From Dehalococcoidia bacterium (GTDB lineage: Bacteria > Chloroflexota > Dehalococcoidia > UBA2979): a stretch of DNA of 64,000 nt. The stretch is taken from positions 254,445-318,444 of the forward strand of contig CBDAOL010000009.1 in the NCBI GenBank assembly GCA_965198045.1. The letters run 5' to 3'. The notes below the pieces were generated by a model. The model did no database searches, was not told the DNA's origin, and worked only from the letters and a program-made list of their open reading frames with translations. Numbering within the stretch: position 1 is the stretch's first letter; each line of letters starts with the position of its first letter. The position numbers and the translations under genes were made by a program. Positions 18,443 to 56,059 of this stretch are shown one piece after another.

Positions 18443-18684
18443 CTAGACCTTGTAGCCGCCGTCGACGCTGATCACCTGACCGGTGATGCCGCCTGACTCC
18501 GGCGCCGCGAGCAGAGCGGCCATCGGTCCCAGCTGATCTCCCCGACGACGCTATCGAGCTGCGCCCTCGTGCGTGAGGACACAGCGACCGCGGCCCCCTC
18601 CCGCGCGAGTTCGAGCGCGATCGCTCGTCCGATACCGCGACCACCACCCGTTACTACCGCTTTCAAGCCGTCGAGCCGTGCCAT
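18443..18684 (-). pseudogene. short-chain dehydrogenase/reductase remnant with large internal deletion
   Basis: N-terminal Rossmann motif (KAVVTGGGRGIGRAIALELAREGAAV) reads almost directly into the SDR C-terminal tail (...AALLAAPESGGITGQVISVDGGYKV*) in another frame. The catalytic core of about 170 aa is missing. Confidence 0.55.
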
Positions 18685-18773
18685 GTCTTCCTCGTCTCAT
18701 GCGCCCTCGAGGGGCGTAGGCTGACCGCGATAATAGCGAGGGTCCGGGAGCGGGGTCCGGCGAGGGGCAACCG

Positions 18774-19769
18774 ATGTCCGACACCATGACGAAGCGGGAG
18801 CGGGTTCGCGCCGCCCTCGCAGGGCAGCCGGTTGACCGCGCGCCGGTCTCGATGTGGGGGCACGACTATCTGCGCGAGTGGTCCGCCGAGGACCTCGCCG
18901 CGGCCACGCTGGAGCAGTACCGCGAGTTCGATTGGGACTTCATCAAGCTCAACCCGCGCTGGACGCACTTCGCCGAGGCGTGGGGTGCGCGCTACGAGCC
19001 GCCCGACACCCAGCGCAACCCGCGGCCGCTGGCCCATCCGGTCGAGTTGATCGAGGACCTGCGATCGATCGAGCCGGTTGATCCGCTTGGCGGGCCCTTC
19101 GCTGAACAACTCGAGGGCCTGCGCACGCTCCTCGACGAGCTCGACGGCGAGGTCGACGTCATCCAGACGCTATTCTCGCCGCTTTCGATCATCGCCATGC
19201 TCTGCGGCCGGCCGGCGACGATCCAGGAGTTCGCCGCCGAGGACCCGGCCGCCGTCCATCGCGCCCTCGCCGCCGTCGCGGACACGCTCGGGCGCTACGC
19301 CGAGGCGACGATCGAAGCGGGCGCTTCCGGCGTGTTCTACGCGCCGCTCTTCTGGGCGAGCCGGGACACTTGCGACGAACGGTTCTACACCGAGTTCGGC
19401 CGCCCCTACGACCTGCAAATCCTCGATCACATCCGCGACACCGAGTTCAACGTGCTGCACGTCTGCCAGAACAACAACATGCTCGAGCTGCTCCTCGACT
19501 ACCCCGTTGCCGCGTTCAACTGGGACGACCGGGGCGAGGGCAACCGGACCCTCGAAGAGGCGCGCGCCCTGACTAACCGCGCGCTCATGGGCGGCATCGA
19601 GCGGGAGCAGCTGACGGACGACGGGGTAGCTGTCATCACCTCGAGGCTCGGCGAGCTGTCAGGAACGTCGCTCCCCGGACTGCTGCTCAGCGGTGGCTGC
19701 GCCGTCTCGCTTGGCAGCAGCGTCGCTGCACGTCACGCCGCCGCCGAGGCTGCTCGACGCGTGGCGTAG
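18774..19769 (+). CDS. uroporphyrinogen decarboxylase (URO-D) family protein
   Basis: URO-D/MtaA-like fold. The C-terminus is atypical. Confidence 0.55.
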   Translation: MSDTMTKRERVRAALAGQPVDRAPVSMWGHDYLREWSAEDLAAATLEQYREFDWDFIKLNPRWTHFAEAWGARYEPPDTQRNPRPLAHPVELIEDLRSIEPVDPLGGPFAEQLEGLRTLLDELDGEVDVIQTLFSPLSIIAMLCGRPATIQEFAAEDPAAVHRALAAVADTLGRYAEATIEAGASGVFYAPLFWASRDTCDERFYTEFGRPYDLQILDHIRDTEFNVLHVCQNNNMLELLLDYPVAAFNWDDRGEGNRTLEEARALTNRALMGGIEREQLTDDGVAVITSRLGELSGTSLPGLLLSGGCAVSLGSSVAARHAAAEAARRVA

Positions 19770-19843
19770 CGACCGATGGGCGATAGCTGACACGACGCCG
19801 CCGAGCCGTCCTCGAGCGCCCGCGCAGGGGGCAGGCCACTCCC

Positions 19844-20809
19844 TTAGACCGCGCGCGCCAGCCCGGCCGCGGCGAGGTCGGACCAGAGGGCGTCAGGCAC
19901 CTCGACGTCCATCATGGCGAGGTTTGTCTCGAACTCCTCGACGCTACGCGGACCCGGGATAACGGCTGCGACCGCGGGATGGCGGAGCGGGTACTGCAGC
20001 GCGGCCGCGCGCATGTCGGTGCCGTGGCGTTCGCAGATCGCCCGGATCGCCTCGGCGCGCTGCCAGCGCTCGTCGTCGACCGGGCGGTAGTCGTATGTTG
20101 CGCGCGCGCGATCGGCTGTCGCGAGCATGCCGCTGTTGTACGGCCCGCCGATGACGATAGAGACGTGGCGCTCCAGGCAGCGCGGCAGCAACTCGTCGAG
20201 CGCGTCCTGTTCGAGGAGCGTGAACCGCCCGGCCAGCAGGAAGACGTCGACATCGAAGAGGTCGAGCACGCTGTTGCAGACCTCCCACTCGTTCACGCCG
20301 AGGCCGAAGGCGCCGATCACGCCCTCGCGGCGGAGGTCGGCGAGCGCCGGGAGGATGCCCTTCACCGCCGTCTCGAACACGCCCGACTGCGACTCGCCAT
20401 GCGTCCATACGTCAATGTCGTGGCAGAAGAGGATGTCCACGCGCTCACGGCCGAGGCGGTCCAGGCTCGCCTCGAGCGAGGTCCGCGCGCCGGTGTAGCT
20501 GTAGTCGTAGCGGACAGTCGGATCACCCCCGCCCGAGGGGTCGAGCAGCCGGCCCACTTTGGTGGAGAGCAGGTACGCGTCGCGTGGAACAGCGGCGAGC
20601 CCGGTGCCGATGCGCCGCTCGCTGCGACCCACGCCGTAGAGCGGCGCGGTGTCGAAGTAGCGAATGCCCGCGTCGTAGGCCGTTCGCACGAGGGCGGCGG
20701 CGTCATCCTCGGCGATCGCATCCCCCAGCCCGCCGAGGGGCGCGCCACCGAAACCGAGTTCGGTGACCAGCAGGTCGGTCGCGCCGATCGTGCGTGTGCG
20801 TAGCGCCAT
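19844..20809 (-). CDS. aldo/keto reductase
   Basis: LGFGGAPLG...YFDTAPLYG... AKR signatures. Confidence 0.8.
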   Translation of the reverse strand: MALRTRTIGATDLLVTELGFGGAPLGGLGDAIAEDDAAALVRTAYDAGIRYFDTAPLYGVGRSERRIGTGLAAVPRDAYLLSTKVGRLLDPSGGGDPTVRYDYSYTGARTSLEASLDRLGRERVDILFCHDIDVWTHGESQSGVFETAVKGILPALADLRREGVIGAFGLGVNEWEVCNSVLDLFDVDVFLLAGRFTLLEQDALDELLPRCLERHVSIVIGGPYNSGMLATADRARATYDYRPVDDERWQRAEAIRAICERHGTDMRAAALQYPLRHPAVAAVIPGPRSVEEFETNLAMMDVEVPDALWSDLAAAGLARAV

Positions 20810-20929
20810 GCTGCCTCCCCGGACGGCGTCGTGAGGAGGAGTCTAAGCGGCCGAGCGGTCAGATGACCTCGCTCAGCGGATGGAGGTGACGATGCTGGTC
20901 CCGCCGATGCAGGAGCCGCTACCGGAGAC

Positions 20930-21670
20930 TCAGTCCCAGCTCTCGCTGCCATCGAGCCGTTCCATCGCGGGGTCGTACGTCAGCATGAACGTGACGGTCG
21001 TGATCCCCACACCATCGACCTTGCTGCCGCTAAACGTGATGTCGTTGCCGTCGAGCAGGCCAGTCCACGGGTCCACCTGCGATCCGTTGACGCCCACGAC
21101 CTGGATCTGGCTGCCCACGATCGTGACGGTGATGTTCTCGAGGTATGCCGCGGTGTCAGACGCTGAGGAGCAGATCCCGATCGGCAGCGGATCGACGGTC
21201 ATTCGCCACGCTCCGGCCATCGTCGGCGCAGGGGTCGCAGTAGGCGTCGCCGTCGCAGTCGGTGTCGGCGTCGGATTCGGCGTCGCCGTGGGGGTGGCTG
21301 TGGGCGTCGCCGTCGGCGCGGCCGTCGCCGTGGGGCTGGGCGTCGAGGCCGGAGTCGGTGCCTCAGTCGGCTCGGGCGTCGGGGACGGGGTGGGCGAAGG
21401 CGACGGCGACGGCGACGGCGTACTGGTGGGCGCCGGCGTCGGTGTGTCAGTCGCGGGAACGGCCGTAGGGGTGGCGGTCGATGTCGGGCTCGGCGCGCTC
21501 ACAAGCGGCTCGTCGTCGTCGCCGCTCGACAGGGCGAACACGGCGATCACGATCACCAGCAGCCGCGCGCCCGCGCCGCCGAGGAACCACCAGATGAAGA
21601 AGACGCGTCGACGGCGTCGTCGCTCCTCTTCCTCTTCGGGCCCGACAGGAGAGTCAGGTTGATCCGCCAT
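20930..21670 (-). CDS. single-pass membrane protein with about 110-aa Pro/Thr-rich linker and C-terminal globular domain
   Basis: EEEEERRRRRR cytoplasmic tip, one TM helix, PT/PS low-complexity repeats, then a C-terminal domain of about 100 aa. Confidence 0.6.
   Translation of the reverse strand: MADQPDSPVGPEEEEERRRRRRVFFIWWFLGGAGARLLVIVIAVFALSSGDDDEPLVSAPSPTSTATPTAVPATDTPTPAPTSTPSPSPSPSPTPSPTPEPTEAPTPASTPSPTATAAPTATPTATPTATPNPTPTPTATATPTATPAPTMAGAWRMTVDPLPIGICSSASDTAAYLENITVTIVGSQIQVVGVNGSQVDPWTGLLDGNDITFSGSKVDGVGITTVTFMLTYDPAMERLDGSESWD
21235..21480. repeat. degenerate codon-level tandem repeat (ACN CCN) encoding the PT-rich linker
   Basis: Runs of acg/ccg/acc/ccc triplets are visible directly in the sequence. 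Confidence 0.6.
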
Positions 21671-21784: not shown

Positions 21785-23112
21785 GTGACTGCCGTACCGC
21801 CGACCGACGCCCCGCCGCTTCGCGCGCCTCTCGCAGCGCGGATCGTGCCTGCGGGCGTGTTCTACGGCTGGGCCATCGCGGTGGCCATCGGCGCGCTGAT
21901 GATGGTCGTCGTCGGGATCGGGTACTACGGCCTCGCCGTCTTCCTGAACCCGCTACAGGAGGAGCACGGCTGGTCGAATGGGGCTGTGAGCGGAGCCGCC
22001 GCGCTCTACTTCATCGCCTCCGGTATCGCTTCGGCGCTCTTTGGACCATTGATCGACCGCCACGGACCGATGTGGCTCATGACAGCCGGATTCATCCTCG
22101 TTGGGCTCTCCGCGGTGCTCGTGGGGTTCGTCGAGGAGCTCTGGCACCTCTACGCGGTCTACCTGCTGCTGGCCATCGGGTTCGGCATGTCCTCGAACGT
22201 CGCGACCAACGCGATCATGACGCGCTGGTTCATGGTCCGCCGGGCGAGGGCGATGAGCGTTTCCGCGACGGGCATCTCGCTGGGCGGCGTCTTCCTCACT
22301 CCGCTGGGCGCGAAGCTGGTCGACATCGGCGGGCTGGAGCTCGCAGCGCCGGTGCTCGGCGGGCTGGTCCTCATCGTCACACTGCCAGTGCTCTGGGGTG
22401 TGATCGCGTACGACCCGCGACAGATGGGACTGCACCCGGACGGCGAGGATCCGGCGCTCAGTCTCGCTGCCGCCAGCACCCGCATCGACGCCGGCTCGCA
22501 GTTCCGGCCTGGTCGATCCCACAGGCGCTGCGCACGGTCTCGTTCTGGGGCATCGCCATCGCCTTCACGCTCGTGCTGATCGCGCAGACCGGCTTCGTCA
22601 TCCACCAGATCGCGTTCCTCGAGGACCGCCTCGGCAGCCGCAGCGCCGCAGCGTTGGCGCTGAGCACGACCGCCTTCGGCAGCATCGTCGCGAGGCTGAT
22701 CGTCGGCACCTTCGCCGACGCCGTGGACAAGCGCTGGCTCACCGTCGTGCTGTTCATCGTGCAGGGAGTGACCGTGCTGCTCGTACTCCGCACCGAGAGC
22801 GTGGTCGCCACCTACGCGCTGACGCTCACCTTCGGATTCACGATCGGGAACATCTACATGATGCAGGCGCTGCTGGTCGGCGAGATCTTCGGGATGGTCT
22901 CGTTCGGCGCGATCTTCGGGGTCGTGGCCATGAGTGGGCAGGCGGGGAGTGGGCTCGGCCCCCTGCTGGTCGGTTTGCTCGAGGATCGCAGCGGCAGCTA
23001 CGACCTCGCGTTCACGGTCACGGCGCTGATCACGTTCGCTGCCGCCGGGCTTGTGCTCTTCGCACGACCGATCGAGGGCCTCGGCAGCGCTGCGTCACCC
23101 GCCGAGGGCTGA
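21785..23112 (+). CDS. MFS transporter, interrupted by a frameshift near 22490-22510
   Basis: N-terminal six TM helices are in ORF 21785..22579. C-terminal six TM helices are in a different frame (21766..23112 track ORF). Confidence 0.65.
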
Positions 23113-23115: not shown

Positions 23116-23979
23116 TCAGCCGGTCTCGATCGGCAGAGCCGGGTCCGCCGCCCACTCTGACATCGATGCGTCATAGATCGAGACGTTCTCGACGCCGAGC
23201 ATCTTCAGCACGAACGCGTCGCTGCTCGCGGCGATACCCCCGCCGCAGTAGGTGATCACGCGCTCGCCGTCGGTGGCGCCGACGCCGGCGAACTGTGTGC
23301 GCAGCTCCTCGAGCGGTCGATACGCCCCGGTCTCCGCGTCGACGAGGCCGAACGCCGGCACGTTGACGCTCGAAGGGATGTGGCCGGGCCGGCCGTATGG
23401 CGACACCTCGCCGCTGTGCTGATCCGCGCCGAGGGCGTTGAGGATGCACGTGTCGCCGTCCTCGATGCTCGCCAGTACATCGTCGCGGTCCGCGAACAGC
23501 TCAGGCCGCGGCTGCGGCACGAACGTCGCCTCCGGGTAGGTCGACGGCTCCGTCGAGGTCGGGCGACCCTCGGCGGTCCACTTCGTCCAGCCGCCGTTGA
23601 GGACTGCCGCGTCGTCGAAACCCGTGGCGCGCAGCATCCACCAGATACGCGTCGCCCACATGTGGCCTGCGCGGTCGTAAAGCACGACGCGCGTGCCTTC
23701 GCCGACGCCGTAGCGGCCCATCGCCGCCGCGAACTCCTCGGCGGGGGGCATCATGAAGCGGAGTTCCGAGTTGCGGTCGGAGAGATCCCCCGGCAGGTCG
23801 GCGAAGCCGCTGCCCGGGATGTGCGAGGCAGCCCACTCCTCCCGCGCCGCGTCGGCGTTGAACCCACCGCCCTCGCGCGGTCGCAGGAACACCGTGCAGT
23901 CCAGGACTCGCAGGTCCGGATCCTCGAGCTGTGCTTCGAGCCAGTCGGTTTCAGCCAGCGGTGTCTCGAACGCGCTCAT
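23116..23979 (-). CDS. two-domain rhodanese: thiosulfate/3-mercaptopyruvate sulfurtransferase (SseA-like)
   Basis: Tandem rhodanese domains with the catalytic motif ...VITYCGGGIAAS... in the second domain. Start set at the ATG preceded by GAAGGG. Confidence 0.8.
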   Translation of the reverse strand: MSAFETPLAETDWLEAQLEDPDLRVLDCTVFLRPREGGGFNADAAREEWAASHIPGSGFADLPGDLSDRNSELRFMMPPAEEFAAAMGRYGVGEGTRVVLYDRAGHMWATRIWWMLRATGFDDAAVLNGGWTKWTAEGRPTSTEPSTYPEATFVPQPRPELFADRDDVLASIEDGDTCILNALGADQHSGEVSPYGRPGHIPSSVNVPAFGLVDAETGAYRPLEELRTQFAGVGATDGERVITYCGGGIAASSDAFVLKMLGVENVSIYDASMSEWAADPALPIETG

Positions 23980-24018: not shown

Positions 24019-25188
24019 TCACCGTTCGTAGACGACGCCCCCGGTGCGGTGGGCTGCGATGTAGTCGTGGCCGATCTCAACGCCAAGGCCCGGCCCCTCG
24101 GGCGGCTGCACGCAACCCTGATCGTCGATGGACTCGAGCTGCTCCTCGTAGTTGAGGAACACCGGCGGCCGCGACAGCTTCAGCCGAGGGTGCACCAGGC
24201 CCATCTCGTAGTAGTTCGTGTTGCGGATCGCGGCCATCAAGTGCCGGCGCGTCGGGCCGGGTGAGTGCAGTTCCGCGTCGAGGCCGAAGCCCTCAGCGGC
24301 GTGCGCCACCTTGAGGCCGCCCGTGATGCCGCCGTCGTAATCGGGGTCGACCCGCACGAAGTCGGTACCGTCCGCGACGATGAAATCGACGTGCATCTCC
24401 ACGCCTCGGATGTGCTCGGTCTGAAGCAGCGGCGTGCTGATCAGCTGTCGCAGCTTCCGGTGACCGAACGCCGAGACGCCGCCGTCGCGGTAGGGATCCT
24501 CGAGCCAGAGATAGCCGTACTCGTCGCATGCCTTGCCGACCTTGTAGGCGTCGGCGAACGTCATGAGCGTGCTCGCCGGGTCGAGCATCATGTCCATCTT
24601 CCCGCCGACCCGCTTCGCCACGGCCTCTAGGAGGTCGAGCCGCTTCTGGAGGGTCGCGTCGCGCCACCAGTGGATCTTGTACGCGGGGTAGCCCATCTCC
24701 AGGCACTGCTCGGCGAAGTCGGCATAGGCCTCGGGCGTGCTCAGGCCATCGGGCTCGTCGTCTCCCACCGTCGTGCTGGCGTAGCACGGGAGGTCGGTGC
24801 GGAACTCGCCGAGCAGCTGGTAGACCGGTGCGTCGAAGAACTTGCCGGCGATGTCCCAGAGCGCCATGTCGACCTGCGACATCCCCATCCGCGCCTGTTG
24901 CTTCAGCGACAGCTTGGCGTCGTTGTAGAAGCGTTCGCGTGCCAGCGCGCTGCGCCCGAGCAACGCATGCGCGACGTTGGCCACGCCCGCGAGTTCCGAG
25001 GCGTTCCCACCCACGTATTCGCCGGTGATGCCAAGGTCCGTCTCGACGGACAGCAGACGCCCGGTCCGCGTAAGCGTGCCACCCTTGCGATACATCGGCA
25101 TGCGTGTCTCGCGGTGCGGTTCGATGTCCTGGAGCTCGTAGCTGAACTCGGTGATCTCGATCTTCGTGACGATCGGGGGCTGATCCAT
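24019..25188 (-). CDS. enolase-superfamily enzyme (mandelate racemase / muconate lactonizing enzyme family)
   Basis: Capping domain plus TIM-barrel with acidic metal ligands (...MDMMLDPASTL..., ...LWLEDPY...). Confidence 0.8.
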   Translation of the reverse strand: MDQPPIVTKIEITEFSYELQDIEPHRETRMPMYRKGGTLTRTGRLLSVETDLGITGEYVGGNASELAGVANVAHALLGRSALARERFYNDAKLSLKQQARMGMSQVDMALWDIAGKFFDAPVYQLLGEFRTDLPCYASTTVGDDEPDGLSTPEAYADFAEQCLEMGYPAYKIHWWRDATLQKRLDLLEAVAKRVGGKMDMMLDPASTLMTFADAYKVGKACDEYGYLWLEDPYRDGGVSAFGHRKLRQLISTPLLQTEHIRGVEMHVDFIVADGTDFVRVDPDYDGGITGGLKVAHAAEGFGLDAELHSPGPTRRHLMAAIRNTNYYEMGLVHPRLKLSRPPVFLNYEEQLESIDDQGCVQPPEGPGLGVEIGHDYIAAHRTGGVVYER

Positions 25189-25244
25189 GGTTCGACTCCG
25201 TGCTGCGAGTGATCTGTGGCATCAGCGCACCCTAGCGGAGTCTG

Positions 25245-27490: not shown

Positions 27491-28238
27491 ATGCTGCAGG
27501 ATCTGACCGGGCAGGTCGCATGGATCACGGGCGCCGGCACCGGGATCGGCGAAGCCGGCGCGATCAAGCTCGCCGAGGCTGGCTGCAAGGTCGTGCTCTC
27601 CGGCCGGCGCGCTGAGCACCTCGAGCGTGTCGCGCAGCAGATCAAAGCCGCCGGCGGCGAGGCAGTAGTCGAGCCGCTCGACGTCCTCTCGCAGCCTGCC
27701 GTTGCAGCCGTCGTCGACCGCATCGTCGAACGCTTCCGCCGCCTCGACATCGGTGTCTTCAGCGCTGGTGTGAACGTCAAGGACCGCAACTGGCCAGTGG
27801 TCACACCCGACGGCTGGAACCAGGTGATCGGCATCGACCTCGACGGCGCGTTCTACTGCATGTCATGCGGTGCTGCCCGTGATGCGCGAGCAGGGCGGCG
27901 GCCTCGTGATCAACATCTCCTCGATGGCCGCGAAGGGCGTCAGTCCCCTCACCGGGCCCGCCTACACCGCTGCGAAGCACGCCATGAACGCGATGACGGC
28001 GTCGCTCCTGATCGAGGAGCGCAACAACGGCATCCGCGCGACCGCGATCTGTCCCGGCGAGGTCGCCACGCCGATCCTCGACCAGCGGCCGGTGCCCGTC
28101 AGCGCCGAGGATCAGGCGCGCATCCTCCAGGGCGAAGACCTCGGCGACTTGATCCTCTTCGTCGCGCAGCAGCCGCCCTCGGTCACGCTCAACGAAGTGC
28201 TGATCACGCCGACCTACAACCGCTTCGCTGCCGGATAG
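27491..28238 (+). CDS. SDR family oxidoreductase, disrupted by a 1-bp insertion frameshift near 27858
   Basis: TGAGTGIG Rossmann motif in frame 2 up to ...GAFYCM. Continues as ...LPVMREQGGGLVINISS...YTAAKHA (catalytic Y-x3-K) in frame 0. The consensus ...FYCMHAVLPVM is restored by deleting one t in atgTcatgcgg. Confidence 0.7.
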
Positions 28239-33336: not shown

Positions 33337-33339
33337 GAG

Positions 33340-46646: not shown

Positions 46647-46891
46647 CGCCGTGCCTCGATCCGATGCGCCATCATCACGTCGGCGACCTTAACGAAGCCA
46701 GCGGTGTTTCGCATCTCGGACGCGGTCGACGTCGGCGTCGTGCCTGACGCGCAGCACGTGGAGGTCACGCTGATCGACTCGATGCGCTCTTCGCGGTACT
46801 GACGGTCTCCGAGCATTCGCCGACCCACGCGCGGCGCTCGGGCCTTCCTCCAGCGGCCCGAGCAGCCCCCTCAACCAGAGCCGGCAGCCAT

Positions 46892-47542
46892 CTAGCTCCC
46901 GATCTCAGCGACCGCCTCGTCGGTCGTCATCACCGCGCTCGCGATGAATCGGAAGTTCGTCATCGCCGCCTCGTAGCCGCCGCCCAGTTCGGGGTGCTGG
47001 GCCGCGGCCGTCGCGTCGGCGACCACCGCGACCTCGAAGCCGTCCTCCGTCAGCTCGCGCAGATGCGCCTCTGTGCAGAGGTTGGCCGACATGCCGGCGA
47101 GCAGGATGTTGGTCTTCCCGCGCTTGCGAAGCTGCAGCGCAAGGTCGATCGACTCCGGCCCATACACCTTGTGCGGGCCCGCGATGACGGTCTTGCCGTC
47201 CTCGATCAGCGGCTTGTATTGCTCGAGCCAGCCGGCGCCCGAGCCCTCGAAGCCGTCAGTCGTGAGCGAGCCCTTGCGGTCGAACATGCCGATCTCGTGC
47301 ATCATCTGCTCGACGGTGCTGCCGAACTCCCAGCCCGAGTCGGTCGGGTAGTAGTAGTGCGGTGAGATGAACACGTCGTAGCCGTTGGCCGTCGCGGCCG
47401 ACATCAGTTGTTCGATGTGTTCAACGGTCCCGTGCTCCTCGACGCTGGCGCCCACGAGCCCCCAGGTGACGCCCTCGGGACTGAGGAAGTCGTTCTGCGG
47501 ATCAGTGATCACGATCGCGGTGTTACCGCTGCTGATGTCCAT
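46892..47542 (-). CDS. isochorismatase-family hydrolase
   Basis: ...NTAIVITDPQNDF... and a Cys-containing ...LLAGMSANLCTE... isochorismatase-like catalytic region. Start trimmed to the ATG after AGGGGG; the upstream part of the track ORF is Arg-rich non-coding-looking. Confidence 0.7.
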   Translation of the reverse strand: MDISSGNTAIVITDPQNDFLSPEGVTWGLVGASVEEHGTVEHIEQLMSAATANGYDVFISPHYYYPTDSGWEFGSTVEQMMHEIGMFDRKGSLTTDGFEGSGAGWLEQYKPLIEDGKTVIAGPHKVYGPESIDLALQLRKRGKTNILLAGMSANLCTEAHLRELTEDGFEVAVVADATAAAQHPELGGGYEAAMTNFRFIASAVMTTDEAVAEIGS

Positions 47543-47652
47543 GGAACCCCCTGGAGTATTCGCCATGTGATTCGCGTGCACAGAGTAGACGAACAGCTCA
47601 GTGATCTGCGTTCCGGATAGTCTCTGGAGGGCGGCCGAGTGGGCCGAGTGGG

Positions 47653-48807
47653 CTACGGCCAGAGCGCGAGCAGTTCGCGCTCCACGTCCTCCTTCTCGCG
47701 TCGGTAGGACGCGCTCGGCGGATCCATCGCGACGCTCGGCGCAGGCAAGCCGTAGAAGTCGCCGCCAGCGTGTGCGGCCAGCCCTCCGCCGAGTTCGACG
47801 TAGCATTCGCCGCGCCCGGAGAACACGGTCGATTCGCCGTCGCCGGTCAGTTCTGCCGCGATCGCCGTCGCGACCACGCGCCCCTGGGCGTCGGCGAAGA
47901 CGCCCGCCTTCGGCAAGTACATGCCGTTCGCGAGTCTGATCGCGGTGGCGTCACCGATGGCGAACACGCGCTCGAAGCGGGTCGCGAGGGTCTGCGCGTC
48001 AACCGGCACCCAGCCCGAGGCATCGGCGAGCCCCGCCTCTTTCAGGACCGGGGGCACCACGTGCGGCGGCACCCCCACGAGGAGGTCGAACGTGGTGTCG
48101 TGCAGTTCGAACAGGATCCGACTGGCCGCCGGATCGATCTTCATCGCGATCTGCTCCCAGTGGAGTTCGATGCCCCGCTCCTCGAGCATCTCGATCAACG
48201 CCGTCCCGATGTGCTCACCGGCCACCAGCATCGGACGGTCTTCCGGTGTGTAGAGCGCCAGCTCCGTCTGATCACGCACCCCGCGCTCGCGGAGCAGGGA
48301 GTCGATCATGAAGGCCGCCTCGTACGGTGCGGCCGGGCAGGAGTAAGGCGTGCGAGCGATCAGGATCACCAGCCGCCTTCCAGTGAAGTCCTGGAGGGCA
48401 CGCTGGATGTCCTCTGCGCCGTCCCACTCGTAGAGGTTGTGCGCAGCCTCGGCGAAGCCGGGCACGGCATCGGCATCCCGCTTGGCGCCGAGGGCGACGC
48501 AGAGGTAGTCGCCCTCGAAGGTGCCGGCCGAGGTCTCGACGGTGCGTGCGCTCGGGTCGATCGCCGTGACCTCCGCCTCCACCACCTCGATACCGAGAGC
48601 GGCCAGGTCGGCGAGTGAACGCTCGCCCTCGCTCCGGTCGGCGCGCTCGCCCGTCATCACCCAGAGCTTCGACAGGCCGGCCGCGAAGCGCTGCTCTCGC
48701 TCGATCACCACGATGCGGTGGTCGTCCGGCGTCAGCCGGCGCAGCTGGGTCGCGAGGGTGAGCCCGCCGATCCCTCCGCCGAGCACCAATGTTGTCGCGT
48801 CGGCCAC
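47653..48807 (-). CDS. sulfide:quinone oxidoreductase-like FAD-dependent pyridine-nucleotide-disulfide oxidoreductase
   Basis: N-terminal FAD GxGxxG (LVLGGGIGGLTLA). Conserved Cys in ...TPYSCPAAPYEA... and ...GRGECYVELGG.... C-terminal amphipathic tail. SQR versus type-II NADH dehydrogenase cannot be resolved by eye. Confidence 0.5.
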   Translation of the reverse strand: MADATTLVLGGGIGGLTLATQLRRLTPDDHRIVVIEREQRFAAGLSKLWVMTGERADRSEGERSLADLAALGIEVVEAEVTAIDPSARTVETSAGTFEGDYLCVALGAKRDADAVPGFAEAAHNLYEWDGAEDIQRALQDFTGRRLVILIARTPYSCPAAPYEAAFMIDSLLRERGVRDQTELALYTPEDRPMLVAGEHIGTALIEMLEERGIELHWEQIAMKIDPAASRILFELHDTTFDLLVGVPPHVVPPVLKEAGLADASGWVPVDAQTLATRFERVFAIGDATAIRLANGMYLPKAGVFADAQGRVVATAIAAELTGDGESTVFSGRGECYVELGGGLAAHAGGDFYGLPAPSVAMDPPSASYRREKEDVERELLALWP

Positions 48808-48816
48808 GCCGGGCTC

Positions 48817-49140
48817 CTATCCGAAGCTCACAACCCGATCCGCTTCTTCAGTCAGCCGTACGAGGTCGTCCATGGTGGACATCGGACAGAGGGCGCTCGC
48901 GTCCATCTCCCGAAGGCGCAGGCAGGTACCGCAGCTCAGCGCGACGCCCCCCAGCTCATCGAACCGGACGAGCAACGACTGGACGTCGAAGCGCTCGCTT
49001 CCCATCTGCTCGATGTCGACGGCCTGCCCGAGCAGGAACGCGCTCACCTCATGCCAACGCGAGAGCGCGGCGGAACCGAAGCGGAACGCGTTCCACACGG
49101 TCTCAGTCTCGTCCGTGTTGATCACCAAGGCGTAATTCAT
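48817..49140 (-). CDS. DsrE/DsrF-like sulfur-relay family protein
   Basis: 107 aa; ...VALSCGTCLRLREMD... Cys-containing DsrE-like motif. 9 nt upstream of the SQR-like gene. Confidence 0.6.
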   Translation of the reverse strand: MNYALVINTDETETVWNAFRFGSAALSRWHEVSAFLLGQAVDIEQMGSERFDVQSLLVRFDELGGVALSCGTCLRLREMDASALCPMSTMDDLVRLTEEADRVVSFG

Positions 49141-49286
49141 GGGCGTCTCCTCGGGCGGCGTCGCGGCGCCAACAGGCTCGGCGCTTCAGGATAGCGCTGC
49201 AATGGCGAGCGCAGACGGCGCCGGCAACCGCCAGGCGAGGAAGTTGATCGCGAGCGCGCGCTGGGCCTGAGCTGCAGCGTAGAGGG

Positions 49287-49800
49287 CTAGTCGTCGCTCG
49301 GCTCGTACGGGTGCTGGCGGAAGAGATCCGACATGCGCTGCCCGATCAGCTGCATCCGCAGGTCGTCATCGAGCCCGTGGAAGATCGAGCGGTTGATCGA
49401 CTCCTTGATCACGCCGATGTAGCCGTGGCTGTTCCGACCAAGCTCCGCGAGACGCTCCGCCAGTTCGTTCACCTCGTCTTCGAGCGCCCCCGGCGCCGCG
49501 ACCTTCGTGATCAACCCCAGCTCGGCAGCCTCCTCCGCGCTGGTGAAGCCGTCGTCGAGGATCAGCCGCATCGCATGCTTGAGCCCGACGTACCGGGGCA
49601 AGAACGCGGTCGCGCCGATCACCATGCGCAGCTGGCTGTCACGGGTCGGCAATCGCGAAGTCGGATGCCAGCATCAGGTCGAATCCCGATCCCATGCAGT
49701 AGCCATGCACCTCCGCGATCACCGCCTGCGGGATGCGCCGCAACAGCGTCTGCAGGCGGAAGTACGGATGCCGCTCGAGCCTGTGCGCCCCTGCGCTTCG
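49287..49800 (-). pseudogene. enoyl-CoA hydratase remnant (N-terminally truncated, internal frameshift or stop)
   Basis: The crotonase middle region (...QAVIAEVHGYCMGSGFDLMLASDFAIADP*) ends at a TGA. The C-terminal part (TTG-initiated ORF 49287..49652) is in another frame. There is no room for the N-terminal 100 aa before the upstream gene. Confidence 0.55.
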
Positions 49801-49852
49801 CCCTGTGGTGTCGGACCCGACGGCATATTACATCCGTGTGCGACCGACGGGG

Positions 49853-50680
49853 TCAGGCGAAGCGGCCGAACCGGGCGCGCAACCGTTCCTGGTAGTCAGC
49901 GTCGACCACCCGCGCCTTGACCGGGTAGGTCCACGTGCTGAGCGAGGTGCGTGCGGGCAGGTCCTGCTTCGGCGGGATGGCGGCCGCCGCGGCCGGGACC
50001 GTCCCAAAGGTCCCTTCGGCCTCAAGTGCCTCGAACTCCTCGTCGCTGAAGCCCATCAGCCGGGTCGCGATCTCACCGTTGTGTTCGCCGAGCAGCGGCG
50101 CGCGAGAGACGAGCCGCGCGGGCGTCGAGGTGAGGTGCACGCCGGAGCCGGGGAAGGCGCGCACACCCACTCGCTCCTGTGTGGCATCGTGCTCGACGAG
50201 CCAGAAGAAGTCGCGGTCGCGTAGCTGCTCGTTGAGCAGCAGGTCGCGGATGTCGTTCGCGGGCGACGCCGCCACGCCCGCGGCTTGCAGCGCCTCCGCC
50301 GCTTCCGCCGGTGGCCGGGCTAAAGACCACCGTTCGAGGCCCGCTCGTACTCCGGCGATGTCGCTGCCCTCGGTGTGACCAACGATGTCAGCGACGCGCT
50401 CGCACTCCTCCTGGGTGCGCACCGAGACGGCCAGCCAGCGGGCGTCGCCCGCCCCGGCAAAGCAGCCGGAGATCAGCTCGTCCGCACGCTCGCTGCCCGC
50501 GCGTTCGACCGGTACGCCCAGCGCCTCGCTGACGTAGAGGTCGCCGACCAGGTTGACGCCGATCTCGTACTGCGCGACGTCGATCCAGGCGCCCTCGCCG
50601 GTGCGATCGCGGCGCTCGAGGGCCGCGAGGATCAGGAACGCGATGTGGTACGCGACGACGTGGTCCATGATCGGCGGATT
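49853..50680 (-). pseudogene. family III CoA-transferase C-terminal remnant
   Basis: Homology starts at ...NPPIMDHVVAYHIAFLILAALERRDRTGEGAWIDV... (CaiB mid-region). The N-terminal 160 aa of the family are absent. Confidence 0.55.
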
Positions 50681-50689
50681 GCCGCGGCG

Positions 50690-51029
50690 AAAGGAAGCGG
50701 ACCCCACCGGCCTCTGCCCCCCAGGTCGCCGCCTGTTCGAAGCGAGACGACAGCGCGAGGATGTCGTCGAGGCTGGCCACGCTCCCACCACCACCCGGCG
50801 TCGCGGGCCCATCGGTGCCGTAGCTGCCGTCGGCTTCGTACCCGTACTCGCCGTAGCTGCTGTCAGCAGCTGCGGTCGCGGCGGCAACTCCCTGGTCTGC
50901 GCCCGTCTCGGCTGCTGCGATCGCGGAATCGTCGCGATCGTCGGCGCCTCCACAGGCGGCCGCCAGCAGCAGTACAGGAACCACAAGCAATCGAGTAAGG
51001 AACCGGATCTTGCGCCCATGGTCCGTCAT
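50690..51029 (-). CDS. putative lipoprotein (signal peptide, lipobox LAAC, Gly/Tyr/Asp-rich); its frame runs on into the CoA-transferase remnant
   Basis: MTDHGRKIRFLTRLLVVPVLLLAAACGGADD... is a signal peptide with a lipobox. The 3-prime boundary is uncertain. Confidence 0.35.
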
Positions 51030-51267
51030 CGGTCCACCTCGATTCGGTGGGGGCGTCTCATCTGTGATCGCGATCCTACGCCGCTCTCAGGAACTCACAA
51101 CCGTGGGCGAAGCTGCGGTCCGACCGCCCGGCTCAGGTCTGCCGGTGAGCCACCGGGTCGATCATCGGCCGCGATGGCTGGCCGGCGACATCCTCGATGT
51201 CTCGGCGCGCGCGCCCTCGTCCGAGGGTTCGGCGCGTGCCTGCGTGACTTGGAAAGCGGCCAGAGCT

Positions 51268-51456
51268 TTAGTCGTCGCTCGACAGGGGGCCTGGTGTCAC
51301 GTTGGGAGCCGGAACTGGGGTTGGGTCCGAGACGGGGGCCGCGGCCTCGGCGGAGCCTTTGCGCGCAGCACGGGCTGCTCTCTTCGCCGCGCGCTTCGCG
51401 GCTTTGTCGCGCTCGCGCTGCGACCGTTCAAACGAGAAGTTGGAGCGACGGGCCAC
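51268..51456 (-). CDS. small basic protein (62 aa: MARRSNFSFERSQRERDKAAKRAAKRAARAARK...)
   Basis: GTG start with a GAAGGAG RBS. Sits 35 nt downstream of the tRNA on the same strand. Confidence 0.4.
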   Translation of the reverse strand: MARRSNFSFERSQRERDKAAKRAAKRAARAARKGSAEAAAPVSDPTPVPAPNVTPGPLSSDD

Positions 51457-51490
51457 GAGATCTCCTTCGGTGGGTCCGATTAGGTCAAGG

Positions 51491-51565
51491 TGGTAGCAGG
51501 GGCCGGATTTGAACCGGCGACCGACGGCTTATGAGTCCGTTGCTCTGCCACTGAGCTACCCTGCC
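51491..51565 (-). tRNA. tRNA-Met (anticodon CAT); could alternatively be the lysidine-modified tRNA-Ile2
   Basis: GGCAGGGTAGCTCAGTGGCAGAGCAACGGACTCATAAGCCGTCGGTCGCCGGTTCAAATCCGGCCCCTGCTACCA folds as a cloverleaf: acceptor 7 bp (G1-U72), D arm GCTC/GAGC, anticodon loop CTCATAA, T loop TTCAAAT, encoded CCA. Confidence 0.8.
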
Positions 51566-51601
51566 ACACCTCGGATTGTCGCGTGGCGTCGAGGGCGCTG
51601 T

Positions 51602-52924
51602 CTAGCGGGCGGCGTCCGAGACGGCTTGCAGCGTCGACGTGATGTCGACCGGGTACGGCTCATCGGTCGGCGCGGTCGTGCGCAGCGTCGACGAGAGTGT
51701 GGCGCGCGCCGCGATCGTACGGTCGCGTGCAGCGTCGAGGGGTTCGCGGGGTTCGAGGCGGCGACCGCCGCGCATGACCGGTCGCAGCAGCGGCTCACCG
51801 TCGACGGTCTCTTCGGTAAGCGCGATGGTGTCGCCGCTGGCGATGCCGGTCGCGTCGTAGAGGCGGCAGACCTGCTTGCGCCCGCCGAGGGTCGCCTTTT
51901 CCTCCGAGCGCTTGGCGCGGGCGACACCGTCGTAGGCGGCGAGCTTGTACACAGCTTCGAGACTCGGTGCGTCGGCGGAGTTGTGCACAGCAGTGCCAAC
52001 GCCGAAGGCGTCGACCGGAGCCCCCGAGGCAACGAGCGCAGCGATGCTGTACTCGTCGAGGCCCCCGCTCGCGACGATGCGGACCTCGTCGAGCCCGGCG
52101 GCGTCGAGGAGCCCTCGGGCCTCAAACGCGTGAGCGGCGAGGTCGCCTGAGTCGAGCCGGATCGCTCGCACCGTAAAGGCGTCGCCCAGCTCCTCCGCTA
52201 GCGCAATCACCCGTTCGACGCCCTCGATCGTGTCGTACGTGTCGACGAGGAGCGTGGTCTCCGCATGCGTCTCGGCGAAGCTGCGGAACGCCGCCGCCTC
52301 GTCGCCGTACGCCTGGACGTAGCTGTGCGCCATCGTCCCCGCGGCGGGGATCCCGTAGGTGACGCCGGCCAGCACGTTCGAAGTGGCGTCGAAGCCCGCG
52401 AGGTAGAGCGTGCGGGCCGCCGTCATCGCAGCCTCGGTGCCGTGGGCTCTGCGCGCGCCGAAGTCGATCAGCGAGCGCCCCGCCGCCGTCTCCACCACCC
52501 GCGCGGCCTTCGAGGCGAGCATGGTCTGTAGATGCATCTGGACGAGTACGTAGGTCTCGACGAGCTGGGCGACCGGTAGCGGCGCCTCGACCCGCAGCAG
52601 CGGCTCGTCGGCGAAGACGGGCGTGCCCTCGGGCATCGCATCGACATCGCCCTCGAAGCGCAGCGCGGCGAGCCAGCGGAGGTCGTCGGCGCTGAGCACG
52701 CCGAGTGCCTCGTGTTGGCCGAGCGCCTCGTCAGTGAAGTGCAGCCCCTCGAGATAGTCGAGCACGTCTTCGATCCCGCCGGCGATGAGGTAGCTGCGCT
52801 CGGGCGGCAGCGACCGGATCGTGAGGTCGAAGACGGCGCTACGCGTAAGCCCGTGCTCGCGATAGGCGCGGAGCATCGTCAGCTCGTAGAGATCGGTGAA
52901 GAGCGCCTGCTCGTGCGGCTGCAC
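51602..52924 (-). CDS. pncB: nicotinate phosphoribosyltransferase
   Basis: ...ALFTDLYELTMLRAYREHG... NAPRTase N-terminus. GTG start overlaps the pncA stop; the long Arg-rich upstream extension in the track ORF is rejected. Confidence 0.8.
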   Translation of the reverse strand: MQPHEQALFTDLYELTMLRAYREHGLTRSAVFDLTIRSLPPERSYLIAGGIEDVLDYLEGLHFTDEALGQHEALGVLSADDLRWLAALRFEGDVDAMPEGTPVFADEPLLRVEAPLPVAQLVETYVLVQMHLQTMLASKAARVVETAAGRSLIDFGARRAHGTEAAMTAARTLYLAGFDATSNVLAGVTYGIPAAGTMAHSYVQAYGDEAAAFRSFAETHAETTLLVDTYDTIEGVERVIALAEELGDAFTVRAIRLDSGDLAAHAFEARGLLDAAGLDEVRIVASGGLDEYSIAALVASGAPVDAFGVGTAVHNSADAPSLEAVYKLAAYDGVARAKRSEEKATLGGRKQVCRLYDATGIASGDTIALTEETVDGEPLLRPVMRGGRRLEPREPLDAARDRTIAARATLSSTLRTTAPTDEPYPVDITSTLQAVSDAAR

Positions 52925-53520
52925 TACGCCGTGCTCTCGACGAGGGCCACTCCTGCCGCGCTCAGCTCCTCGAGGCGGCGCGCGGAGTCGCCCGGCTCGA
53001 GGTCGACGCCGCGGATGGCGTCGGTGAGTACCGTCGTGCCGAAGCCCAGGCGTGCCGCGTCGAGGGCGCTCCCGTGGACGCAGTAGTCCGTCGCCAGCCC
53101 GGCGACCACGACGCGCGCGATGCCACGCTCGCGCAGCAACCCTTCGAGGGCTGTCGCCCTCGTCGCATCGCTCTCTGGGTCCCGCATGGTGAAGCCTGAG
53201 TAGCCGTCCTCGCCGCCGGTGCCCTTGCGGACCACCTCGCCCTCCACGGTGAGGTCGGGGTGGAACTCCGCGCCCCAGGTGTCGCGAACGCAGTGGACCG
53301 GCCAGATGCCGCCGTCCTGCTCGAAGTGGGGCGTGTGTGGCGGGTGCCAGTCCTGCGTGTAGGCGACGAAGGCGCACGCCGCCACAGCTCGCGACACCTC
53401 GCCGTTGATCACGGGGACCACCGCTTCGCCGTCGCGAACGCAGAGCCCGCCGGGCGGGTCGGCGAAGTCGTTCTGGACATCGACGACCAGGAGGGCGGTT
53501 GCGGCGTCGTAGTCGACCAT
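52924..53520 (-). CDS. pncA: nicotinamidase/pyrazinamidase (isochorismatase family)
   Basis: ...ALLVVDVQNDF..., metal-binding ...DWHPPHTPHF... and catalytic Cys in ...GLATDYCVHGSALDA.... Confidence 0.75.
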   Translation of the reverse strand: MVDYDAATALLVVDVQNDFADPPGGLCVRDGEAVVPVINGEVSRAVAACAFVAYTQDWHPPHTPHFEQDGGIWPVHCVRDTWGAEFHPDLTVEGEVVRKGTGGEDGYSGFTMRDPESDATRATALEGLLRERGIARVVVAGLATDYCVHGSALDAARLGFGTTVLTDAIRGVDLEPGDSARRLEELSAAGVALVESTA

Positions 53521-53538
53521 CTCGCCGCTCCTCACCGG

Positions 53539-55593
53539 CTAGCGGCGGAGCTGGCGCTGGATCGGCAGCTCACGATGGCGCTCGCCGGTGGCGGAGAACA
53601 CTGCGTTCGAGATCGCCGGAGCGGTCGGCACGATGCCCGGCTCACCCGCACCCGTCGAGGCCGTCTCGGCGTCACCGACCAGCGCGACGCTGATCGAGGG
53701 CGTGTCGACGATGCGCGGGACGCGGTAGCGCGCGAGGTTGGCGTTGAGCAGACGCCCCTGTTCAAAGTCGATCGCTTCGAACAAGGCGTTGCCGATGCCC
53801 ATCACGATCGCCCCCTCCATCTGGTTGACCGCGCCGTCCGGTTTGACCGTCAGGCCGCAATCGAGCGCCGAGGCCATGCGCTCCACCCGCACCTCGGCGG
53901 GCTGCGCATCCGCCTGCAAGCAGACCGCCGAGTAGGACCCCACGTCGAGGCCGATCCCGACGCCGCTGCCAGCACGGCCGTCCCAGCCGAAGTCCTCGGC
54001 GGCACGTTCGAGGACGCGACGGTAGCGCGGCTCGGCGAGGTGACGCAGGCGCAACTCGACCGGGTCGGCATCGACCGCGTCCGCGATCTCGTCCATGTGC
54101 ACCTCGCGTGCGAAGTGGTTCACAGCGCCGCCGAGCGAGCGGTAGCTTCCCGCGGCCAGCGGGCTGTCGGAGCGTGCGACCGTCACGCGGGCGTGTGGTG
54201 TCGTATAGGGCGAGTCGGAGCCTCGACGCCCGATCATCGCGCGCTCGCCAGCGTGGAACGCATCGCACTGCCATGCGGTCAGCGTGCCGTCGTTGCGGAA
54301 CCCGCTCTTGATCTGGATCAGCGCCGCCGGGCGGAATGTAGCCCACGTCTGCTCCTCGGCTCGTGTGTACGCAACCCGCACCGGGCGCCCGGCCACCCGC
54401 GCGAGGCGTGCCGCCTCCGCGGCCGGAGCGAAGATCGACTTGCCACCGAAGCCGCCGCCGATGTCCGGCGTCAGCACGCGCACCGATGATTCGTCGAGGT
54501 CGAACCTCGAGGCGAGTTCGCTGCGCAGCCCGAACGGCCGCTGGGCCCCCGCCCAGACCGTCAGGGCGTCGCCGCCCCACTTGGCGACCGCCGCGCGCGG
54601 TTCCATCGGTGTGATCGAGATGTACGGGATGTAGTACATCGCCTCGAGGATCTGGTCCGCCTCGCCGAACCCGTCGTCGAGGTCGCCGGCCTCCTGCGTA
54701 ACGAAGTGGTCCTGCGCCGAGTCGATGAGGAGCTGCGGCATGTCCCAGCGCCCCGGCTGGCCGGCCTCTTCCTCCCACTGCGCGTCGACCAGCGACGCTG
54801 CGCGCTCGGCCGCCTCGTCGCTCTCGCCGAGCACTGCAACGAGGTCGCCGTCGCGCACAACGTCGATAACGCCGGGCAACTGTTCGGCGATGCTCGAATC
54901 CACCTCGACCAGCCGCGCACCGTACGAGGGTGGCCGCACGACGGCGGCGAACGCCATGCCGTCACGCAGCACGTCGCGCGTGAAGGTGGTCTCGCCGGTC
55001 ACCCGCGCGACGGCATCGACGCGCTCGGCGTGCTCGCCCATCACCGTGAACTCGTCCGACGACGTCAGGGCGGCGTCATCGTCGATTTCGAGCTCGATTT
55101 CGCGGCCGGCGAGGAGTTCCGCGTAGCTCACCGATGCACCAGCCTCGGACGCGACGACCCCCTCGCGCGCCGCGAGGTCCGCGACCGGGAGGTCGAGGTG
55201 GTCAGCGGCCAGTGCCAACAGCGCCTCGCGCGCCGTGGTCGCGGCCCGGCGCAGCTGCGGGCCGACGCGCGCCGTCGACTGGCTGCCGAACGTGTCCATG
55301 TCCCACGGCACCTGCGCCGTGTCGCCGAGGATCACGTCGACGGCGTCGAGGGGCAGGCGCAGCTCGTCCGCAACCTCCACCGCGAACCCGGTGCGAATGC
55401 CCTGTCCGTACTCGACCTTGCCTGCGTAGACCGTGACTGTGCCGTCCTCGTGCAGGCGCAGCCAGGTCGCGCGCTCCGTCTGCGGCTCGGTGTTGCCGTA
55501 CGTGACCCGCCCGTACCCGGTGAGTGACACTGGGAAGCCCACGGTCACGTCACCGACGATTGCGAGGCCAGCCGTCGAGGTCGTCGCCGTCAC
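53539..55593 (-). CDS. xanthine dehydrogenase family molybdopterin-binding subunit (IorB/aldehyde-oxidoreductase beta-like arrangement)
   Basis: MoCo-binding segments (...GGGFGGKS..., ...GSQSTARVG...) in an order unlike the classical large subunit at 1..2214. Start overlaps the 2Fe-2S gene stop. Confidence 0.75.
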   Translation of the reverse strand: MTATTSTAGLAIVGDVTVGFPVSLTGYGRVTYGNTEPQTERATWLRLHEDGTVTVYAGKVEYGQGIRTGFAVEVADELRLPLDAVDVILGDTAQVPWDMDTFGSQSTARVGPQLRRAATTAREALLALAADHLDLPVADLAAREGVVASEAGASVSYAELLAGREIELEIDDDAALTSSDEFTVMGEHAERVDAVARVTGETTFTRDVLRDGMAFAAVVRPPSYGARLVEVDSSIAEQLPGVIDVVRDGDLVAVLGESDEAAERAASLVDAQWEEEAGQPGRWDMPQLLIDSAQDHFVTQEAGDLDDGFGEADQILEAMYYIPYISITPMEPRAAVAKWGGDALTVWAGAQRPFGLRSELASRFDLDESSVRVLTPDIGGGFGGKSIFAPAAEAARLARVAGRPVRVAYTRAEEQTWATFRPAALIQIKSGFRNDGTLTAWQCDAFHAGERAMIGRRGSDSPYTTPHARVTVARSDSPLAAGSYRSLGGAVNHFAREVHMDEIADAVDADPVELRLRHLAEPRYRRVLERAAEDFGWDGRAGSGVGIGLDVGSYSAVCLQADAQPAEVRVERMASALDCGLTVKPDGAVNQMEGAIVMGIGNALFEAIDFEQGRLLNANLARYRVPRIVDTPSISVALVGDAETASTGAGEPGIVPTAPAISNAVFSATGERHRELPIQRQLRR

Positions 55594-56059
55594 GAGCTCG
55601 CCCCGTTCGCCCGTACCTCAGCCGCGGCACGCAGGACCGCTCGCTCGATCCGCACATACGTGCCGCCGCGGCAGAGATGCTCCGACAACGCCTCGCGCAC
55701 CTGTTCCGCCGAGGGCTCGGTCTCGCGGCTGAGCAGCCCGGCGGCGCCCATGATGAGGAAATGCAGTACCCGCATTGCATCGCGTTCTCATCGACGAACG
55801 CGCGCTGTACCGGATGCAGGTCCTCGGCGGTGCCGAGGCCCTCGATCGTGGTGACGCTGCCCCCGGTGACGGCGCCAACCGTGGTCATGCAGGCTCGCAG
55901 CGCCTGGCCGTCGACGAGGACCGTGCATGCGCCGCACAGCCCCTCACCGCAGCCGTATTTCGTCCCGGTCAGGCCCAGGTCGAACCGCAGGTAGCTCAAC
56001 AGATTGCGGTCGCCCCGTTCGAGGTCTCGCGACTCGCCGTTCACGGTCAGGCTGGGCAC
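55590..56059 (-). CDS. (2Fe-2S)-binding small subunit of the Mo-hydroxylase, frameshift near 55775
   Basis: Plant-type and second 2Fe-2S motifs (...GCGEGLCGACTV..., ...QCGYC...). The C-terminal ...IMGAAGLLSRETEPSAEQVREALSEHLCRGGTYVRIERAV is in another frame (track ORF 55590..55775). The GTG start coordinate is approximate. Confidence 0.65.

Follow-up and report, generated by a model that had tools for sequence, protein, structure and literature searches.

The classical examples of pseudogene accumulation under relaxed selection are Yersinia pestis, Salmonella Typhi, Shigella and Mycobacterium leprae. The DNA considered here is a 64,000-nucleotide stretch from a Dehalococcoidia bacterium (contig CBDAOL010000009.1, positions 254,445 to 318,444; hereafter the window, numbered from its first letter). 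It encodes luciferase-like flavin monooxygenases, a Baeyer-Villiger monooxygenase, an enolase-superfamily enzyme, a P450 and PNPOx-like proteins, together with family III CoA-transferases, short-chain dehydrogenases/reductases (SDRs), aldo-keto reductases (AKRs) and crotonases. A repertoire of this kind has been described for SAR202-type Dehalococcoidia (PMC5395668, PMC6946804). An earlier note, made from the letters alone, had reported an unusually high density of disrupted genes at 18443–56059 and had offered two explanations, ongoing gene decay or an indel-prone assembly. The evidence presented below makes it probable that a block of ~32 kb (~18.5–50.7 kb) has recently lost purifying selection and is decaying, although four frameshifts private to the window may be consensus errors. 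Most genes of the block have paralogues within the window, and for almost every broken gene one of these paralogues is intact.

At a G+C content of 69% throughout, the window yields many spurious open reading frames (ORFs). Because of this, genes were placed by third-position GC (GC3) and frame plots. Three closely related contigs were recovered by exact-protein look-up of window proteins in ENA assemblies: contig_28 (ERZ25071987; 271 kb, ~99.9% identical, its loci L082–L084, L086, L087 and L089 covering window 1–62924) and two low-coverage metaMDBG contigs, ctg345300_3x (ERZ25766727; ~99.6% identical, loci L081 and L085 spanning window 16817–50689) and ctg473896_4.45x (ERZ26167216; ~99.6% identical, locus L088 spanning window 1–17507), below ctg345300 and ctg473896. 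The same look-up with the proteins at 28273–29475, 19844–20809 and 18774–19769, each with a window-private amino-acid change, returned no match, and with the HEAT-repeat protein it retrieved contig_28 alone. A fourth contig, L001 (CBDDEC010000004.1), comes from a GTDB Dehalococcoidia metagenome-assembled genome (MAG) of a sister species and is 93% identical and collinear over window 31020–50689. Every relative found through a Zn-dependent alcohol dehydrogenase is a MAG with the label Dehalococcoidia or Chloroflexota. Between the window and contig_28 there are ~70 single-nucleotide polymorphisms (SNPs), an inverted 4-bp hairpin loop and a tandem-repeat array that differs, and each of the two has private lesions; they are different, independently assembled strains. 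Because they are different strains, lesions common to both can be taken as inherited.

All seven frame breaks proposed in the earlier note are present. In a major facilitator superfamily (MFS) transporter (~22508), an SDR (27860), LtrA (32570), an AKR (40401), a PAS histidine kinase (46329), a crotonase (49641) and a 2Fe-2S subunit (~55760), one Pfam domain carries on in another frame of the same strand, as GC3 frame plots, three-frame translation and Pfam scans agree. Two of the breaks, however, are not single-base events: the histidine kinase has a 5-bp deletion and the 2Fe-2S subunit a ~7-bp deletion. The three truncated remnants (SDR, crotonase and CoA-transferase) are likewise borne out by translation and by truncated Pfam profiles. 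Two further lesions had been missed, a 10-bp deletion at 39852 and an N-terminal lipoprotein stump at 50690–51029. Between 18.4 and 56 kb, ~10 of ~36 genes are hit, compared with none of ~23 in the flanks (1–18.4 kb and 56–64 kb), where ~16 and ~7 genes, respectively, have full-length domain matches. The lesion density is far above chance, and the initial estimate that about one gene in six is affected holds (one in seven if only verified lesions are counted).

Many of the lesions are common to the window and contig_28. At the left end of the block, the SDR remnant on the minus strand (18443–18684) has an internal deletion of 545 bp with its junction at 18534/18535. Its catalytic core is gone, and translation leaves only ~50 N-terminal (Rossmann) and 25 C-terminal residues. 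The same deletion is found in contig_28, which has no indel relative to the window in 16178–21322, whereas ctg345300 (locus L085) has 545 extra bp at the site and an intact adh_short gene of 261 aa; L001 stops short of it. The minus-strand LtrA pseudogene (32169–33336) has an inserted C at 32570 and is split into 274 and 120 aa in contig_28 too, with intact genes of 388–389 aa in ctg345300 and L001; its recent changes comprise four nonsynonymous and no synonymous substitutions. On the plus strand, a PNPOx-like gene and an AKR are fused (39456–40956) by the 10-bp deletion at 39851/39852, also present in contig_28, which takes out the PNPOx-like stop codon. The AKR part is intact in L001 and has been hit independently in each of the three close strains: by a window-private extra G at 40401 (GG to GGG, as first read), by a 169-bp deletion in contig_28 that removes the start codon (window 39901–40069) and by a GAG-to-TAG change at 40002 in ctg345300. 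The PAS histidine-kinase pseudogene (44834–46646, minus strand) owes its break to a 5-bp deletion at 46328/46329 common to contig_28. L001 has an intact ORF of 740 aa, and ctg345300 retains the 5 bp but has lost a C of its own at 46117.

At the right end of the block, the minus-strand crotonase remnant (49287–49827) lacks 315 bp of its N-terminal part (junction 49778/49779) and spans positions 55–206 of the ECH_1 profile. All three close lineages (the window, contig_28 and ctg345300) have this deletion, whereas L001 has an intact ORF of 281 aa; in the window a non-templated A is also inserted at 49641. The adjoining C-terminal remnant of a family III CoA-transferase (49853–50689, minus strand) matches Pfam profile positions 159–366 of 366. 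Homology to ctg345300 and L001, both of which have the full-length gene, stops exactly at 50689, and the same junction exists in contig_28. The lipoprotein stump (50690–51029, minus strand), which has a signal peptide and lipobox and extends for ~113 aa, abuts this breakpoint, is identical in contig_28 and forms the other edge of the multi-gene deletion that truncated the CoA-transferase. No transposase, integrase or insertion sequence (IS) element that could account for the deletions was seen in the window or at junction 50689. A minus-strand tRNA-Met (51491–51565), supported by both ARAGORN and Rfam, lies 0.8 kb from this junction and marks where the decaying block ends on the right. It is the only Rfam hit in the window; an ARAGORN 'tRNA-???' at 25134–25211 lies inside the enolase-family gene, lacks Rfam support and was rejected.

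Beyond the tRNA lies one more damaged gene, a minus-strand 2Fe-2S small subunit of the IorA/CoxS type (55590–56065). Owing to a ~7-bp deletion at ~55761, the residues that should separate QCGYC from FLIM are missing, and in the CRCG cluster motif a Cys has become Gly (GGC at 55665–55667). The window and contig_28 do not differ anywhere in 49642–59639, so both defects are common to them. The ancestral state of this gene was taken from PDB homologues, as the comparison has no outgroup contig here: in 5y6q, 8gy3 and 1sij the residue at the altered CRCG position is Cys, and 'PG' separates QCGYC(T) from (Q)IM.

Taken together, the LtrA insertion, the histidine-kinase 5-bp deletion, the PNPOx 10-bp deletion and the CoA-transferase truncation occur in the window and contig_28 only, being absent from both ctg345300 and L001; the 545-bp SDR deletion is confined to the same pair and absent from ctg345300. 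The distribution across lineages is nested, with the crotonase deletion in all three close lineages and the set just listed restricted to the window and contig_28. At every comparable site an intact orthologue exists in ctg345300, L001 or both. Comparison of orthologues, which had been suggested as a check, thus reveals identical LtrA, histidine-kinase, IorA, SDR-remnant, crotonase-deletion, CoA-transferase and PNPOx lesions in an independent contig, and at least eight of the window lesions are inherited. They comprise deletions of 5, 7, 10, 315 and 545 bp, a deletion that ends within genes on both sides and the loss of a cluster-ligand Cys; read noise does not make such multi-base or two-ended lesions.

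The sister strains also have lesions of their own. In contig_28 these are an extra G in nitronate monooxygenase (NMO, 10281), a nonsense codon in an ABC transporter (3737) and the 169-bp AKR deletion. In ctg345300 they include the AKR nonsense change, the loss of a C in the histidine kinase, two lesions in a Baeyer-Villiger monooxygenase, an 8-bp duplication in a HEAT-repeat gene, the loss of a C in an epimerase, and both an extra G and an extra A in a thiamine pyrophosphate (TPP) enzyme gene. Thus, the AKR was hit in three ways in three strains and the histidine kinase twice. Such repeated hits are not in significant excess, since six genes have two or more lesions and ~5 would be expected at random.

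Substitutions provide a second line of evidence. Comparison of the window with L001 gives a ratio of nonsynonymous to synonymous substitution rates (dN/dS) of 0.12 where genes are intact and 0.14 where they are broken (dS ~0.2); therefore the genes were under strong constraint until recently, and the decay is recent. On the recent branches the pattern is neutral. Within 18.5–50.7 kb, coding changes among the close lineages number 60 nonsynonymous (N) to 20 synonymous (S), set against a neutral expectation of 2.99:1 derived from site counts. The ratio is 22:3 in genes with a lesion in any strain and 38:17 in genes intact in all strains. The branch common to the window and contig_28, whose changes cannot be assembly noise, has 18 N to 4 S. 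In contrast, the left flank (1–17 kb) has 22 N to 24 S, which differs both from neutrality (p = 1e-4) and from the block (Fisher p = 0.003), and RecQ on the right side has 1 N to 3 S. The block evolves neutrally and the left flank does not. A dN/dS test, which the earlier note had called for, therefore comes out as low values relative to L001 and neutral N:S on the recent branches of the block. One point weighs on the other side of this argument: dN/dS near 1 is common between very young clones generally, so that part of the N:S signal reflects time-dependence rather than loss of function.

The contrast between block and flank also bears on whether decay might be genome-wide, driven by host restriction or by a bottleneck with small effective population size. 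Several observations are in keeping with that idea, as dN/dS is ~1 on all recent branches of the block, the flank at ~0.3 is itself above the long-term 0.12, and contig_28 has a frameshift (NMO) and a nonsense codon (ABC transporter) in flank genes. Nevertheless, selection is still visible in the flank (22:24) and RecQ (1:3) against 60:20 in the block, no window gene is broken in ~26 kb of flank, no IS elements were seen, and the closest relatives are labelled as free-living aquatic MAGs. We consider genome-wide decay quite unlikely. Host restriction in particular, which had been raised as a possible cause, finds no support, since selection is relaxed in one region and not uniformly. We infer that the relaxation is both regional and recent.

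The alternative that all or most disruptions are consensus errors of a low-coverage or unpolished long-read assembly makes different predictions. Random errors would give N:S of 3:1 everywhere, unlike the observed contrast between block and flank, so inter-assembly differences must be mostly biological. In the constrained flank, moreover, three of the six inter-strain indels fall in the intergenic 4.5% of the sequence (p ~0.002), so that here, too, selection is filtering indels. Homopolymers are stable as well. Of 53 runs of at least 5 bases in the 42 kb compared, one differs between assemblies (an intergenic C8), and none of the 52 runs of 5–6 bases does; two of the seven frameshifts had been assigned to homopolymers, yet no lesion lies in any run of at least 5 bases. 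At least seven lesions, among them deletions of 5 to 545 bp, the two-ended gene deletion and the Cys-to-Gly change, recur exactly in the contig of a different strain. On the side of error, four 1-bp frameshifts are private to the window, the 3x and 4.45x sister contigs each have private 1-bp indels, some of them demonstrably unshared within one lineage, and the benchmark rate of ~4 indels per 100 kb (PMC13087279) matches in magnitude. As a complete explanation an indel-prone assembly is refuted, and we regard it as very improbable overall; it survives for the four private sites only. The earlier choice between decay and assembly is thus settled for decay as regards three frameshifts, the three remnants and the 10-bp deletion.

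The single varying long homopolymer, the poly-C tract at 35808–35815, has lengths of eight (window), seven (contig_28) and six (ctg345300) bases; in L001 the run is broken. The tract lies just upstream of a minus-strand gene (35308–35799, start 35799), in a spacer shared with a divergent gene that begins at 35946.

Five small indels are private to the window: this intergenic poly-C change and the frameshifts in the MFS transporter, SDR, AKR and crotonase. The MFS transporter (21785–23112, plus strand) has lost one C at 22508 (CCC to CC); contig_28 and ctg345300 have the extra C and an intact gene of 442 aa. In the plus-strand SDR gene at 27491–28238, the inserted base had been called a T, but it is an A at 27860. 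This A is non-templated, and contig_28 and ctg345300, which lack it, encode an intact SDR of 248 aa. At all four frameshift sites contig_28 and ctg345300 are intact, as is L001 where it covers them. The four are either the newest events of the same decay or consensus errors, and for each the chance of being real ranges, according to the site, from somewhat below to slightly above even.

Several observations count against accepting them. None of the four is present in a second assembly, with all sister contigs intact. Both inserted A residues duplicate neither neighbour, although every other 1-bp insertion in any lineage copies an adjacent base; being non-templated, they look more like consensus errors than slippage and are the least credible of the four. 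The crotonase insertion, in addition, lies within a 17-kb stretch devoid of window-private SNPs. For well-covered genomes in ONT (Oxford Nanopore Technologies) metaFlye and nanoMDBG assemblies, ~4 indels per 100 kb have been reported (PMC13087279), and ~2.5 errors would therefore be predicted in 63 kb. Finally, the low-coverage sister contigs do contain errors: the TPP-enzyme gene of ctg473896 has two inserted single bases that ctg345300 lacks, despite agreement at 28 of 28 overlap SNPs.

It may instead be that all eleven lesions are real and that the window strain has simply gone four steps further in the same neutral decay. The relaxed 30 kb contains all five private indels, the remaining 33 kb none. 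Although the events are few, this placement ((30/63)^5 = 0.02) argues against random distribution. Two of the four frameshifts (AKR and crotonase) affect genes already dead from verified lesions. The ratio of private indels to SNPs (~5 per 30) matches that of the verified branch shared with contig_28 (~5 small indels per 26 SNPs), and contig_28 has three private lesions of its own, a nearly symmetric three against four. With the two non-templated A insertions on the opposite side of the scale, we find it rather unlikely that every one of the eleven is genuine. Run lengths at the private sites are 0, 0, 2 and 3, and neither the transition/transversion ratio nor GC-to-AT bias discriminates between errors and mutations. 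If all four were errors, only the MFS and SDR genes would be rescued. Even if every private small indel is counted as an error, five in 63 kb give the assembly an upper bound of ~8 per 100 kb (~8e-5 per base), which is not the indel burden of uncorrected long reads. Because it is accurate to ~1 indel per 10–15 kb or better, gene content and synteny calls in the window can be trusted.

The last of the disruptions listed in the earlier note was an in-frame TGA in a rhodanese gene. The TGA does exist, at 42945–42947 in a minus-strand rhodanese-CBS fusion (42444–43148), but it is more likely a selenocysteine (Sec) codon than a lesion. Gene callers break this gene into pieces of 67 aa and 98 to 115 aa. 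In alignments with PDB structures 3nhv and 3o3w, the TGA falls on the second Cys of the active-site CxxxxC loop (CwgpaC), and both it and the full 234-aa frame are kept in L001, where the protein is 94% identical. Constraint is similar on both sides of the codon, with dN/dS of 0.165 upstream and 0.185 downstream. A hairpin with an 8-bp G+C stem and a 3-nt loop, a putative selenocysteine insertion sequence (SECIS), begins 13 nt after the TGA, in a segment of which 59 of 60 nt are the same in L001. Because it is Cys-aligned, conserved across species and followed by a hairpin, we did not count the TGA as a disruption, and its reading as selenocysteine is the most likely interpretation of these features. 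Neither the window nor the 65 kb of contig_28 that were read contains selA, selB, selC or selD, the tRNA-Met being the only tRNA there. A two-domain rhodanese at 23116–23979 was also considered as the TGA gene and rejected, since it is intact and its TGA is a normal stop.

Rhodanese-related sulfurtransferases are a known selenoprotein family (PMC1976440, PMC2398784). The candidate resembles its known members in having an in-frame UGA where homologues have Cys and a hairpin downstream, and it differs in that the Sec position corresponds to the second Cys of the CxxxxC loop and in the fused CBS domain. In annotation, the TGA at 42945 should appear as a possible Sec codon, not as a stop.

That this one codon behaves as if recoded might suggest that the frameshifts, too, reflect functional recoding, by programmed frameshifting or stop read-through, rather than damage. 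The frameshift sites, however, have no slippery heptamers and include multi-base deletions, the frameshifts are absent from sister strains and the sister species, and they coincide with a neutral substitution pattern. Programmed frameshifting was rejected, as the sites are not conserved, and recoding as an account of the disruptions is hardly conceivable.

Several other features of the window were noted. An isochorismatase-family gene (46892–47545, minus strand) has 5 N and 0 S changes in 411 bp on the branch of the window and contig_28, ~nine times the local density, which could reflect early decay or positive selection. An ORF at 20930–21670 without a Pfam match carries imperfect tandem repeats of the GTCGCC type, 6, 12 and 18 bp long, and differs among all strains by substitutions and small indels. 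The TPP-enzyme gene (16817–18534) is 4.3% diverged in the ctg345300/ctg473896 lineage, almost entirely at third codon positions, while neighbouring DNA is ~99.6% identical; this looks like the import of a divergent allele by homologous recombination. Most nonsynonymous changes of the flank reside in two ABC genes. One of the flank's ABC transporter genes, at 2491–4302 on the minus strand, has a tri-allelic codon at 3737: TCG (Ser) in the window, TAG (stop) in contig_28 and TGG (Trp) in ctg473896. Either a nonsense mutation with partial reversion or three independent changes could have produced it. The hairpin-loop inversion between the window and contig_28 maps to an intergenic, terminator-like palindrome at 59629–59654, with perfect 11-bp arms AACGGCCGGCC / GGCCGGCCGTT and a loop (59640–59643) that reads TGGT in the window and ACCA in contig_28. 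In L001, a luciferase-like gene that is otherwise 95% identical has two 1-bp deletions 19 bp apart (reverse complement 2644–2662, corresponding to window 33665–33684), probably a local assembly error in L001.

Returning to the loss of purifying selection from the ~32-kb block, the best account is as follows. In an uncultured high-GC Dehalococcoidia species with SAR202-like gene content, the block holds accessory redox and catabolic genes and ends near the tRNA-Met, with the nearby IorA gene decaying as well. All classes of mutation are piling up in roughly neutral proportions, from nonsynonymous SNPs, templated 1-bp slips and deletions of 5–10 bp to deletions of 169–545 bp and one multi-gene deletion within the block, and sister strains gain their own lesions independently. 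The trigger could be loss of the block's own PAS-kinase/response-regulator pair or a substrate that has vanished. In its strongest form, which we advance only tentatively, some 32 kb switched en bloc from a dN/dS of 0.12 to neutrality within the last ~0.2–0.4% of divergence in a free-living SAR202-like species, whose strains now inactivate the same genes independently. If true, one would be looking at a pathway as it is lost en bloc in nature, at the 'death' phase of the paralogue birth-and-death that may shape these genomes. In practical terms, at least eight pseudogenes are real and should be annotated as such, and the sites at 22508, 27860, 40401 and 49641 should be flagged as unverified. 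The analysis also demonstrates that a sister contig combined with the N:S ratio can tell decay from assembly noise without reads.

The overall phenomenon is an ordinary one, of a known kind. As in Y. pestis, Salmonella Typhi, Shigella and M. leprae, young pseudogenes are numerous and stem from deletions, small indels and premature stops, dN/dS approaches 1 on the recent branches but is low on the deep ones, and sister lineages have inactivated the same genes in parallel. The locus differs from these pathogens in that the signal is regional (~32 kb), no IS expansion was seen, the relatives are free-living and aquatic, and the sequences are metagenome consensus rather than isolates. A second point of reference is provided by frameshift errors of the IDEEL type in long-read metagenomes (PMC13087279), which the locus resembles in its private single-base indels, splitting genes about once per 10–15 kb, and in the disagreement between low-coverage contigs of one lineage. 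Unlike such errors, most lesions here are shared or multi-base and track the relaxed region, and at most four to five of them fit the error pattern. The third comparison is with the paralogue expansions of catabolic enzymes in SAR202 and related Dehalococcoidia (PMC5395668, PMC6946804). The likeness lies in gene content, the relatives of the window being labelled only Dehalococcoidia. However, those papers describe an ancient expansion, whereas the window presents the death side of birth-and-death and shows strains losing genes of one region in parallel, in a lineage otherwise noted chiefly for expanding its gene families.

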